From positions 7,547-64,515 of the forward strand of contig JBAZHE010000005.1 of NCBI GenBank assembly GCA_041652555.1: a stretch of 56,969 bases of DNA, given 5' to 3'. This document shows, piece after piece, positions 23,262 to 28,047 of this stretch. The position numbers were made by a program, and so were the translations under genes. This stretch comes from Patescibacteria group bacterium (lineage in GTDB: Bacteria; Patescibacteriota; Patescibacteriia; Patescibacteriales; WJLG01). The notes beneath the pieces were generated by a model. It made no database searches, was not told the origin of the DNA, and saw only the letters and a list, made by a program, of their open reading frames with translations. How positions within the stretch are numbered: the stretch's first letter is position 1; each line of letters begins with the position of its first letter.

Positions 23262-23951
23262 ATGACAGACAAGAAGAAAATTTTTCCAATCGCTCTAAAA
23301 AAATATTTAACTGCCCATAGTGTTAACTCGAAAATTTTAGAGCACAAAACAGTTTACACTGCGATTGATGTTGCTAATACTTTAAAAAAGAAAATGGAAG
23401 AAATAGTTAAATCGCTTTTGGTAAAGGTTGATAATTATTATTATATTGTTTGTCTGCCGGCTGATCATAATCTTGATTTTAAAAAAATAAAATCAGCGAT
23501 AGAAAGAACCACCGGAGTAAAAGTTAAAACTATAAAGATTCCTGACGAGAAGACAATGATTAAGGTTTTGAAACTTCAAAAAGAAGGGATGTCAGCTTTT
23601 GGTGGACTTTATAAGTTACCGGTCATTGTTGAGAAAAAATTAGCTAGTATTAAAAGAGCTGTTTTTTCTACCGGAACATTCAACCATTCAGTAGAATTGG
23701 GGTTAAAAGATTTTATTAAGTTAGAAAACGCTGTTTTGGCCAGTTTTGGGATTAAAAAGAAGGTTAAAGTTATTAATAAACGTTCTTCTTCATCTTTGAT
23801 GATGAAGCACGCCAATAAAAAACCTATGGCTACTAAAAAAAAGGCCGTAAAGAAAGCCGTCAAAAAAGCCAAGAAGCCTGTAAAAAAGGCTAAAAAGGCT
23901 GTTAAGAAGGTAAAAAAGGCCACTAAAAAGGCAAAAAAAGCGAAGAAATAA
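23262..23951 (+). CDS. YbaK/EbsC-type aminoacyl-tRNA deacylase domain fused to a Lys/Ala-rich histone-H1-like tail
   Basis: The N-terminal about 175 aa resemble the YbaK/ProRS-associated editing domain. The last about 45 aa are (K-K-A/V) repeats. Confidence 0.6.
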   Translation: MTDKKKIFPIALKKYLTAHSVNSKILEHKTVYTAIDVANTLKKKMEEIVKSLLVKVDNYYYIVCLPADHNLDFKKIKSAIERTTGVKVKTIKIPDEKTMIKVLKLQKEGMSAFGGLYKLPVIVEKKLASIKRAVFSTGTFNHSVELGLKDFIKLENAVLASFGIKKKVKVINKRSSSSLMMKHANKKPMATKKKAVKKAVKKAKKPVKKAKKAVKKVKKATKKAKKAKK

Positions 23952-26385: not shown

Positions 26386-26415
26386 AAAAAGTGTTTCTTC
26401 CGCCATTGACAGCTA

Positions 26416-26443
26416 TTGACTAAAATTATATTTTGTGTTAGTA
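26416..26443 (+). promoter_or_regulatory. candidate sigma70-type promoter of the DGR target gene
   Basis: TTGACT - 16 nt - TGtTAGTAT. An additional TTGACA lies at 26406-26411. Confidence 0.4.
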
Positions 26444-26523
26444 TATTTGTATACATTTGGATGTGTATCCTAATCTGCCGGGAAGAGCAGAAAAGCACTT
26501 TTACATTCAAAAAAGGATGGACT

Positions 26524-27168
26524 ATGAGCCAAAAAACACCAAGCTCCGGACAAGCGCTGGAACTAGCCGGTATCGCTGTTAAAGCGATAGCTAGTGGAAT
26601 TAAAAATGGAAATCCGGATTTTGATCGGGTTCAGGGAATAGTTGGTAATCCCGGAGCCATTTATGATTTCTTCAGCAATTTGTTCGCTGAAAAATCAGAG
26701 AAGCCGACCTCATCGATTTTGAAACTTCTCTCCGCCAGTGAAAACATGACCATCGAATCTCTCGACGGCAAGGAATTCATTCATGGAGACAGAAAAGTTT
26801 TCAAGTCGTATATTGACGACGATTTCAAAAACTGGAAACTGAATCAGGCGAGCGAAGCTACCAAGGAAACTGCCGTGCAGGTGCATGAGCTGGTTGAAGA
26901 CGCGACTTTCGCAAAAATGTTTACTTCGCTTTCCGGCGACTTAGACAAATTATGCCTTACGCAACATCAGATTAAGAGATTTTGCGAATATCCCGGCCAG
27001 CTTAGCCAGAGTGGCGCCACGTTCTTCCTGTTCAAGCTGAATGGAGAATATTTCGTGGCTGACGTGGACGTGTACGACGATGGTCTCTCTGTCTTCGTCC
27101 GCCGCTTCGAGATCGACCCTCTCTGGTGTGCCGAGTATGGTCACCGGCTTGTCGTCCCGCAACTTTAG
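26524..27168 (+). CDS. DGR variable (target) protein, 214 aa, VR at the C-terminus
   Basis: ATG at 26524 preceded by AGGA. The C-terminal 38 codons form the VR. Visibly more GC-rich than its neighbours. The ORF is open from the TTG at 26416, but that stretch looks like a promoter. Confidence 0.8.
   Translation: MSQKTPSSGQALELAGIAVKAIASGIKNGNPDFDRVQGIVGNPGAIYDFFSNLFAEKSEKPTSSILKLLSASENMTIESLDGKEFIHGDRKVFKSYIDDDFKNWKLNQASEATKETAVQVHELVEDATFAKMFTSLSGDLDKLCLTQHQIKRFCEYPGQLSQSGATFFLFKLNGEYFVADVDVYDDGLSVFVRRFEIDPLWCAEYGHRLVVPQL
27050..27165 (+). repeat. DGR variable region (VR)
   Basis: Ungapped match to 27546-27661 (offset 496). The 14 mismatches all lie where the TR has A. The stop codon TAG (27166-27168) directly follows the repeat. 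Confidence 0.9.
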
Positions 27169-27238
27169 TTTCCTAGATCACTTGAACTTGGAAACTTTGT
27201 CCCTTGGATTCTTTGAACTTAGGTTTTAACCTTCGTTC

Positions 27239-27267
27239 TTGAATTCAAGGGATTTTTTTTGTATAAT
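27239..27267 (+). promoter_or_regulatory. candidate promoter for the TR-containing RNA
   Basis: TTGAAT (27239-27244) - 17 nt - TATAAT (27262-27267). Lies about 280 nt upstream of the TR on the same strand. Confidence 0.5.
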
Positions 27268-27545
27268 AAAGATGCAGTTTTGATTTGTTCGCCGGCTAAG
27301 GCTGGTGAGCCAAGATTGTTTGAAGATATTTTTGAGAGTTTTGCCGGTTACGGCTGGCAAGAGAGGAAAATATTTTTAATTCAAATAAACAAGCTAAAGT
27401 TGGTATGGCGCGCTGGCGGACTTTAAGGAGATAAAATTTTCCCGATGTCCCGAATAATTTTCAGCCGTTTCTTTCGCACTCGGCGTCAGGGGCGGCGGTG
27501 GTAAAGGGGCTGGCAACCAGTCTCTTGAAGAAGGCGCGCTATGCA

Positions 27546-27661
27546 ATTTCGTGGCTAACGTGAACGTGAACGACGATGGTCTCAATGTCAACGTCAACCG
27601 CTTCGAGAACGACAATCTCTGGAATGCCGAGTATGGTCACCGGCTTGTCGTCCCGCAACTT
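27546..27661 (+). repeat. DGR template region (TR)
   Basis: Reads FVANVNVNDDGLNVNVNRFENDNLWNAEYGHRLVVPQL, with nine AAY codons. Non-coding copy of the VR. Confidence 0.9.
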
Positions 27662-28047
27662 GGCTGTTCCTCCTTCGCTTGTTGCGAGGGAGTTTTCTTT
27701 TCCAAACCTTTTTTCCAGCCGCCAAGTATGCGGCCGACTTCATTAAGTTTTTCCGATAATTCTGCGTATCGCTCATTGGAAAGGCATTTATTTTCCCAAG
27801 CCAATTGAAAGAAAAATTTAACGCCATCAAGTTTGACAATAGCTGAACCCAGCTCAAGATATTTTTTTTCTTTGGGAAGGTAAATGGCCGTAAAAATATT
27901 TTCTAACATCCCCAAAAAGTATTCTTCAATTTTTCCGCCCAGATTATAGCGATGAGCTTTGGGAAAATCAGTAAGAATTTTAAACCACAGCGCATAGGTT
28001 TCTTTGGCTTTTGTCATCACCGTCGGAATGCTATAATAGGTAGCCAT
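27637..28047 (-). CDS. avd: Avd-like accessory variability determinant (four-helix-bundle protein)
   Basis: 136 aa. The C-terminal NEVGRILGGWKKGL closely resembles the EVGRILGSW segment I recall from Bordetella phage bAvd. Helical heptad pattern. The 3' end overlaps the TR by 25 nt on the opposite strand. Confidence 0.8.
   Translation of the reverse strand: MATYYSIPTVMTKAKETYALWFKILTDFPKAHRYNLGGKIEEYFLGMLENIFTAIYLPKEKKYLELGSAIVKLDGVKFFFQLAWENKCLSNERYAELSEKLNEVGRILGGWKKGLEKKTPSQQAKEEQPSCGTTSR
27670..27701 (+). terminator. hairpin plus U-tract immediately downstream of the TR
   Basis: ctccttcgc-ttgtt-gcgagggag (9 bp, one G-U that pairs only in the + strand RNA), then TTTTCTTTT. Starts 9 nt after the TR end. 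Confidence 0.55.
28029..28037 (+). promoter_or_regulatory. possible extended -10 (TGcTATAAT) upstream of the RT gene
   Basis: TGCTATAAT lies 22 nt upstream of the RT ATG. The same motif occurs at 23147 and 23247. It lies inside the avd 5' coding region on the other strand. Confidence 0.35.

Follow-up and report, generated by a model that had tools for sequence, protein, structure and literature searches.

The cassette and its repeat pair

We examined a stretch of 56,969 nt from a genome of the Patescibacteria group (contig JBAZHE010000005.1, positions 7,547 to 64,515; hereafter the window, to whose full length all coordinates refer), centering on an open reading frame (ORF) at 26524-27168. 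A complete diversity-generating retroelement (DGR) lies in the window, in the order target gene with its variable repeat (VR), template repeat (TR), accessory gene avd on the opposite strand, and reverse transcriptase (RT) gene (Table 1). The avd ORF matches Pfam bAvd at 3.6e-14 (53.6 bits, above the cut-off of 40) and NCBIfam DivGenRetAVD at 7.9e-20 (71.1 bits, below the cut-off of 80). The RT ORF matches Pfam RVT_1 (6.2e-21) and the PADLOC RT (1.7e-46); its translation contains both YADD and LGNLTSQ, and we take LGxxxSQ to be a mark of DGR-type RTs. The order TR-(avd)-RT is architecture B3 of Wu et al. (PMC5758913), which accounts for 90% of Candidate Phyla Radiation (CPR) DGRs and is found nearly nowhere else; by its coordinates the window cassette has this architecture, with TR followed by avd on the opposite strand and then by the RT, and 30-34 of 80 related loci share its order. 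We consider it probable that this DGR is chromosomal, has the standard CPR layout and belongs to a Patescibacteria (CPR) bacterium, with its variable protein encoded at 26524-27168.

Table 1. Features of the cassette, in window coordinates
Feature	Coordinates	Strand	Basis and remarks
Two overlapping sigma-70-like promoter sites of the target gene	26406..26444	+	Scan; TTGACA-17-TATTTT, and TTGACT-17-TAGTAT with TG before
5' leader, non-coding	26445..26523	+	Shine-Dalgarno AAAGGA just before ATG; conserved in relatives
DGR target (variable protein) gene	26524..27168	+	214-aa ORF, TAG stop, homologues, TR/VR pair
N-terminal module, ~61 residues	26524..26706	+	Predicted helical, pLDDT (predicted local distance difference test) 50-66; swapped between family members
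Invariant part of the conserved ~155-residue module, residues 62-175	26707..27048	+	Predicted short strands; strand 116-123; helices 129-134, 140-143, 147-153; strand 165-172
VR, residues 176-214	27050..27165	+	Spans predicted hairpin strands 175-184/187-194, loop 195-207 and last strand 208-212
Invariant VR 3' end, presumed initiation of mutagenic homing (IMH) region	27130..27165	+	Identical to TR 3' end; encodes A-E-Y-G-H-R-L-V-V-P-Q-L
Inverted repeat starting in the stop codon	27167..27196	+	14-nt arms, 86% complementary; DNA fold z = -2.8
Promoter-like site between VR and TR, candidate TR promoter	27239..27267	+	Scan, 10/12 matches; TTGAAT-17-TATAAT
TR, non-coding, 28 adenines	27546..27661	+	Repeat of VR, 116 nt each
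avd accessory gene, 136 aa	27637..28047	-	Converges on TR and overlaps its last 25 nt
Hairpin CUCCUUCGC-UUGUU-GCGAGGGAG, then UUUUCUUUUC	27670..27702	+	9 nt after TR, antisense to avd 3' end
DGR RT gene, 334 aa	28059..29063	+	RVT_1 and PADLOC RT matches

The two repeats have 14 mismatches over 116 nt, and 14 of the 14 are A in TR and non-A in VR; a further A-to-T difference at the 5' boundary of the repeats (27545/27049) is a fifteenth. Their last 36 nt are identical, a sequence that occurs exactly twice in the window against zero copies expected by chance, and by analogy with TaqVP and Mtd we presume this to be the IMH region. The TR reads as the peptide A-N-V-N-V-N-D-D-G-L-N-V-N-V-N-R-F-E-N-D-N-L-W-N-A-E-Y-G-H-R-L-V-V-P-Q-L. 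Nine of its codons are AAY (residues 180, 182, 184, 189, 191, 193, 197, 199 and 202), and A also occurs in those for D185, D186, E196, D198, E204, Y205, H207 and Q213; a stop codon can be reached from none of them. The AAY codons alone allow 15^9 = 3.8e10 protein variants, and all A-containing codons together about 3e15.

The same pattern extends over the family. From related loci we recovered 35 TR/VR pairs; TR adenines account for 540 of their 557 mismatches, and nearly every TR encodes the peptide FFVANVNVNSDGLNVNVNRFENDNVWNAEN.HR.VVPQL. In an alignment of 96 family sequences, the columns of the nine AAY codons have entropies of 3.0-3.4 bits, and the interleaved V/L columns stay at or below about 0.6 bits. 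The alternation of variable codons with fixed hydrophobic ones, which a first-pass annotation of the window had described for this one template, is thus a family trait. Its second claim about the repeat, that the protein ends in a fixed AEYGHRLVV, stands for the R-L-V-V-P strand, which is invariant, but not for AEYGH, which is fixed in the window only; residues 204-207 vary family-wide at 1.99-2.79 bits. The closest relative (P0002) is 98% identical to the target outside the VR and 72% identical inside it, a contrast that we read as the signature of recent diversification.

On established DGR biology, the TR would be transcribed, perhaps from the promoter-like site at 27239-27267, and the transcript would be ended or structured by the hairpin at 27670-27692. 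RT and Avd would then copy the TR RNA into complementary DNA (cDNA), misincorporating opposite adenines, and the cDNA would replace the VR, anchored by the invariant 36-nt 3' end, with the nine AAY codons being recoded without a possible stop.

At least 23 of 31 related loci have an equivalent strong CUCC...GGAG hairpin (8-10 bp) some 10 nt past their TR, with UUUU.UUUUC following it and z from -2.4 to -6.9 by single-sequence folding (hairpin loci L005, L006, L009, L010, L012, L018, L028, L034, L036-L043, L050, L051, L062, L063, L075 and L079). The inner stem sequences differ between loci and the pairing is kept; RNAalifold found no structure downstream of TR, the stems being out of register in the alignment. 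The hairpin may end a short TR transcript, or it may serve a structural purpose within the DGR RNA. The inverted repeat just after the VR was considered as a conserved homing hairpin and rejected: it is not kept in the family (median z = -0.56 over 29 VRs), and its role is for that reason doubtful. Many related loci have short motifs like TGTCCCTTGGA or TCCCTTTG at 25-50 nt past the stop codon of the target (27195-27215 in the window). On the other side of the TR, the C-terminal tail of Avd is encoded antisense to the invariant TR end (27637-27661), an overlap that recurs in relatives (e.g., L003 and L012); it follows that the same seven codons also lie antisense within the VR (27144-27164).

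Start codon, leader and cellular location

The first-pass annotation began the target at ATG 26524, giving 214 aa with neither signal peptide nor transmembrane (TM) segment, and remarked that the hydrophobic N-terminus obtained from an upstream TTG (26416) coincides with promoter-like DNA. These points are upheld by comparison with relatives. The TTG is covered by the two overlapping promoter sites. We aligned the upstream region of the window with those of two relatives (L081 and L002) whose proteins are 81% and 69% identical to the target; TTGACTAAAATT.TATTTT is invariant in this alignment, and the leader contains the conserved block ATCTGCCGGG.AAG.GCAGAAAAG.ACTTT.ACATTCAAAAAAGGATG. Between TTG and ATG the relatives have three one-base indels and a 13-nt indel that break the frame relative to the TTG, with the -35 box and the Shine-Dalgarno sequence kept. 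Extension to the TTG would add a hydrophobic segment (19-residue Kyte-Doolittle value, KD19, of 2.49), and an upstream start supplying such a signal anchor had been named as one of two outcomes that would overturn the annotation; the conserved promoter boxes over the TTG and the frame-breaking indels rule it out. Homologues are about 212 aa long and begin at the equivalent Met, with 91 of the 120 listed being 210-219 aa, and together these comparisons indicate that ATG 26524 is the real start.

The 5' leader (26445-26523 in the window; 4900-5000 in L081; 2710-2811 in L002) matches the coding sequence in conservation among these 69-81%-identical relatives, and a small CTGC...GCAG inverted repeat lies inside it. 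The leader may be a regulatory element.

For lengths and hydropathy we used 120 listed members of the 230 homologues found at E<=1e-3. A hydropathy scan of the N-terminal 70 residues of all 120 detected neither a signal peptide nor a lipobox, TM segment or pilin-type leader; KD19 over these residues averages 0.55 and peaks at 1.70. Since no N-terminal type in the family shows a TM-like stretch, the absence of signal peptide and TM segment holds family-wide. Because no classical export signal is seen, the most likely role of the target is to bind ligands as a diversified module, either within the cell or once exported by a non-classical route. According to Roux et al., targets of CPR clade 2 typically lack TM segments or other recognisable domains, and their genuine non-membrane-bound status is still to be established.

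The target family and its genomic setting

The target belongs to a very large family. A profile search of 1.84 billion representatives, clustered at 50% identity, returned 2,483 clusters at E<=0.001, of which 983 reach E<=1e-30. The conserved unit is a C-terminal module of about 155 residues (profile region 56-215), which also exists on its own, in proteins of 153-161 aa. The N-terminal sequences of about 60 residues that precede it are of at least five unrelated types, and many relatives match only residues ~57-214. Three tandem proteins, P0121 (476 aa), P0122 (560 aa) and P0123 (381 aa), contain two or three copies of the module, with the typical VR motif only in the last copy.

The closest named homologues come from Patescibacteria metagenome-assembled genomes. 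In 79 genomic loci, nearly all of them in genomes labelled Patescibacteria or related, we found 103 family copies; an RT is present in 30 of these loci and avd in about 34, in the same order as in the window. Several cassettes have two targets served by one TR. Close relatives (the P0003 and P0007 contigs; L081 5928-6566) hold a second target, of 212 aa, between the first target and the TR; the window cassette has a single target, and its counterpart region (27169-27545) is a 377-nt spacer in which no remnant of a second target is detectable. Some loci (L054 4792-7183, L049, L059 and L061) hold two to four paralogues in an array and lack an RT within 6 kb, and in L059 two copies have an identical 141-nt C-terminal segment; such arrays may be remote targets or undiversified copies. 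Within 6 kb of the target, six of the 79 loci have a serine-recombinase-like ORF that is about 465 aa long, with the N-terminus YVRKSTEGEERQALSISSQ (e.g., L003 2682-4298, minus strand), a hint that some cassettes are on or near integrative elements.

Two family members, t311 (LBYE01000042.1) and t343 (LBQD01000003.1), were already present in a published DGR reference set (Wu et al. 2018, redistributed as Supplementary Data 8 of Roux et al. 2021), with the VR class 'misc'. They have DLDKLC(L/F)TQHQI and TFFLFK in common with the window target, as well as FVA.V...S.G...V...RL...VW and the ...R..V.PQL end. LBQD01000003.1, which is our locus L078, is 44% identical over residues 60-214 and has the same TR-(avd)-RT order. 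The two differ from the window target in their N-terminal segments, and they are catalogued without fold or function. For 45 CPR VRs no fold was assignable, and Wu et al. placed them in no group for that reason. The target had been presented as unusual; we find instead that its features are the conserved design of a huge, catalogued family of CPR targets in a standard CPR cassette architecture. The element is an ordinary CPR DGR, and its target a new member of a catalogued, uncharacterised family.

Reading of the translations makes the window flanks look like housekeeping DNA, with ScpA/ScpB-like, D-Ala-D-Ala carboxypeptidase-like, triose-phosphate isomerase-like and DnaE-like genes and four tRNAs. 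Upstream of the cassette, a 229-aa ORF at 23262-23951 (plus strand) has a globular N-terminal part followed by a lysine/alanine-rich, histone H1-like tail of KKA/KKAVKK repeats.

The target had also been described as more GC-rich than the RT gene and its surroundings, and calculation agrees. Its GC content is 47.4% (58.6% in the VR, 45.1% in the remainder) versus 35.9% for the RT gene and 37.1% for the window, the highest among the 50 ORFs of at least 150 aa and about three standard deviations above their mean (z = 3.0). Over 81 loci the VR averages 54.9% GC versus 38.9% for the locus, and in 90% of 30 cassettes the non-VR part of the target is more GC-rich than the RT. An excess that is family-wide and concentrated in the VR points to sequence constraints on the TR/VR pair rather than to foreign origin. 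It is best explained by the A-poor, GC-rich design of TR and VR together with loss of A through mutagenesis; recent transfer is the poorer explanation, and we rejected foreign origin as the cause, the RT being at host GC.

Predicted fold and alternative readings

AlphaFold2, run with the 96-sequence alignment, gave a model whose pLDDT averages 83.4 and has block means above 90 for residues 81-214; secondary structure was taken from DSSP strings. Strands are predicted at 116-123, 165-172, 175-184, 187-194 and 208-212, and helices at 129-134, 140-143 and 147-153. Strands 175-184 and 187-194 form a predicted hairpin joined by a D185-D186 turn, and the loop after it holds a short helix in the model; the last strand (R-L-V-V-P, 208-212) is encoded by the segment common to TR and VR. 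With a two-residue turn, cross-strand partners should sum to 371, a register read from the DSSP string. Variable residues 180/191 and 182/189 would then be cross-strand neighbors on one face, together with 184 and 193, and V181/V190, V183/L188 and A179/V192 would lie on the opposite face. Six of the nine variable positions are on the two hairpin strands, where they alternate with fixed V, L and A and so would share one face; positions 197, 199 and 202 are in the following loop. The model thus predicts, with high confidence, the two-stranded hairpin that had been proposed from the template codons as a one-faced display of diversified side chains, and adds the loop to it. A trimmed model of residues 108-214 had a pLDDT of only 73.6, and this drop from above 90 suggests that residues 62-107 are part of the domain. 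The target is predicted to combine an exchangeable helical N-terminal segment of about 60 residues with a compact alpha/beta module, of about 155 residues, that follows it.

We compared the full and trimmed models by Foldseek with 350,542 PDB chains and with BFVD, inspecting the top 50 matches. Neither model had a match at E<=0.001 in either library. The only matches with more than 100 aligned columns at a root-mean-square deviation (rmsd) of about 5 A or less were one C-type lectin domain per library: 3whd from PDB (rmsd 5.1-5.3 A, target-normalised TM-score 0.36-0.38) and a herpesvirus lectin from BFVD (rmsd 4.2 A). Looser lectin-type matches were 3wbr and UL45. The trimmed model yielded only non-significant matches, to minor pseudopilins (E = 0.038), SH2 and PopP2. 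Searches of PDB sequences, using either the single protein or the profile, returned nothing relevant and no lectin, and Pfam and NCBIfam assigned no family to the target; a Pfam DUF7638 match (E = 0.0097) was set aside as chance, being below the cut-off and present in one of 96 members. The Pfam and Foldseek results agree with the first-pass statement that no canonical lectin or formylglycine-generating enzyme (FGE) motif is present, and the structural comparison it had proposed, with Mtd, TvpA and other C-type-lectin (CLec) proteins, gave no significant match and no recognised canonical CLec fold.

That annotation had set a hairpin in place of a CLec fold. The hairpin is predicted, but the contrast may be a false one. 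The CLec core, as defined in the TaqVP paper (PMC6328139), consists of a first strand, two helices, an antiparallel beta2-beta3-beta4 sheet and a last strand, and the order predicted here, strand-helix-helix-strand-strand-strand-strand, is the same. The CLec fold also has its N- and C-terminal strands in antiparallel pairing and its two helices roughly perpendicular. Variable residues 180-202 fall between beta3 and the last core strand, beta5, and this last strand is invariant, as in the solved CLec variable proteins (PMC6328139). Those proteins (Mtd, TvpA, TaqVP and AvpA) share further traits with the target: a C-terminal VR of about 40 residues, AAY codons recoded without stops, and invariant final residues that form a strand encoded by the segment shared with TR. 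They differ in showing no significant similarity to the target in structure or sequence. The target has no inserts between the core elements, its domain has about 155 residues where that of TaqVP (CLec domain, residues 112-381) has about 270, and its variable residues, unlike theirs, are mainly on regular strands and strictly alternating. By eye, the target also resembles DUF1566/CLec2 proteins of the Legionella LdtA type, in which variable and hydrophobic residues alternate around a D-G turn (YVHVGDGLVY in t011) and which end in V-R-P-V. The WYLPS and YWSSSE motifs of that type are, however, missing in the target family, and LdtA-type proteins are surface lipoproteins (Wu et al.), whereas the family has no lipobox or signal. 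We judge the chances that the scaffold is a stripped-down lectin-like core to be roughly even.

Several results weigh against this lectin-like scaffold, or against an intracellular, actively diversified binder more generally. None of Mtd, TvpA, AvpA and TaqVP is in the Foldseek top 50; all lectin matches have E of at least 1.8 and probability of at most 0.16, the best of them, 3whd and 3wbr, having E of 1.8-2.3, probability of 0.12-0.16 and target-normalised TM-scores of 0.36-0.38; and the trimmed model matched no lectin. Pfam FGE-sulfatase, DUF1566 and Lectin_C hit 0 of the 96 members at E<=1, and hhalign of the family against ten CLec2 targets (Roux et al., Supplementary Data 8) gave a profile-profile probability of 0.03%. 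The agreement with the CLec core is one of secondary-structure order, as read from a DSSP string. Clustering of neighboring genes in the 79 loci found that only target, RT and Avd recur, with no partner or pathway gene. The one argument for a cytoplasmic location is that recognisable signals are missing, and the lineage is rich in unrecognised features; the evidence for mutagenic retrohoming is indirect, from the 98% versus 72% identity of the closest relative outside and inside the VR.

Some of these results would fit a new fold unrelated to CLec, a compact alpha/beta domain that carries its diversity on an exposed beta-hairpin face and is a second, independent solution to the display problem. 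It would account for the lack of Foldseek matches at E<=0.001 to either model, of profile matches to any PDB sequence, and of a Pfam or NCBIfam family, as well as for the very low hhalign probability against CLec2; Wu et al. left this VR type without a class, as 'misc', and the domain seems to need N-terminal elements (62-107) that lie outside the minimal CLec core. Against a new fold stand the agreement with the CLec core in VR position and in order of secondary structure, and the lectin domains that give the best global superpositions in each of two independent libraries; the structure searches covered PDB and BFVD rather than predicted cellular structures. We regard a new fold as possible, though on balance doubtful.

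A different objection concerns location. The target might be exported or surface-displayed without a classical signal, as a diversified adhesin by which the episymbiont holds on to host cells or particles. Binders that are secreted or anchored in the membrane make up most cellular DGR targets (Roux et al.), CPR bacteria live attached to hosts (PMC11665869), the top Foldseek matches of the trimmed model are the non-significant minor pseudopilins, and one family member adjoins a T2SSE/PilB-like ATPase gene. We nevertheless think export unlikely: signal peptide, lipobox, TM segment and pilin-type leader are absent from all 120 homologues, which span at least five N-terminal modules, the pseudopilin matches come from the lower-confidence model at rmsd 10-12 A, and pilus or secretion genes are not recurrent neighbors in the 79 loci. 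Placement of the cassette in a prophage or other mobile element, with the target as a phage receptor-binding protein, is highly improbable. Cassette neighborhoods do differ among close relatives, a serine-recombinase-like ORF is near the target in a few loci, and the GC of the target exceeds that of its surroundings. However, the flanking genes in the window read as housekeeping, no phage structural gene family recurs in the 79 loci, the RT is at host GC, the GC excess is concentrated in the VR across the family, and BFVD gave no structural match.

The nearest functional parallel to a diversified module inside the cell comes from multicellular bacteria, in which DGRs diversify putative cytoplasmic antigen sensors (Dore et al. 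2024, PMC10907252). These are likewise predicted to be cytoplasmic and likewise place modular N-terminal regions on a constant, diversified C-terminal domain. They differ in that their CLec/FGE domains are fused to STAND or other nucleoside triphosphatases (NTPases) in conflict-system operons, whereas the window target has no NTPase, effector or conserved neighbor, and in that their RTs fall in a different clade, most CPR RTs forming the separate clade 2.

The gene at 26524-27168 by itself adds nothing beyond its family. The family ranks among the largest sets of CPR DGR targets, with no assigned fold and no export signal. To our knowledge, no proteins vary more than DGR variable proteins, and all those with solved structures have the C-type-lectin fold. 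A bolder and quite unlikely proposal would make the ~155-residue module a non-lectin scaffold carrying some 1e10 or more variants on one hairpin face, an intracellular, free-standing, antibody-like binder of ultra-small symbiotic bacteria whose exchangeable N-terminal segment couples it to different partners. A confidently modelled domain of about 155 residues, free of inserts and able to take 1e10 or more variants on a flat hairpin face, would make an attractive scaffold for display. Roux et al. expect new variants of the lectin fold in CPR, and the family bears on two questions of the literature, namely the nature of CPR targets (new lectin variants or another kind of protein) and their status as genuine non-membrane-bound proteins.

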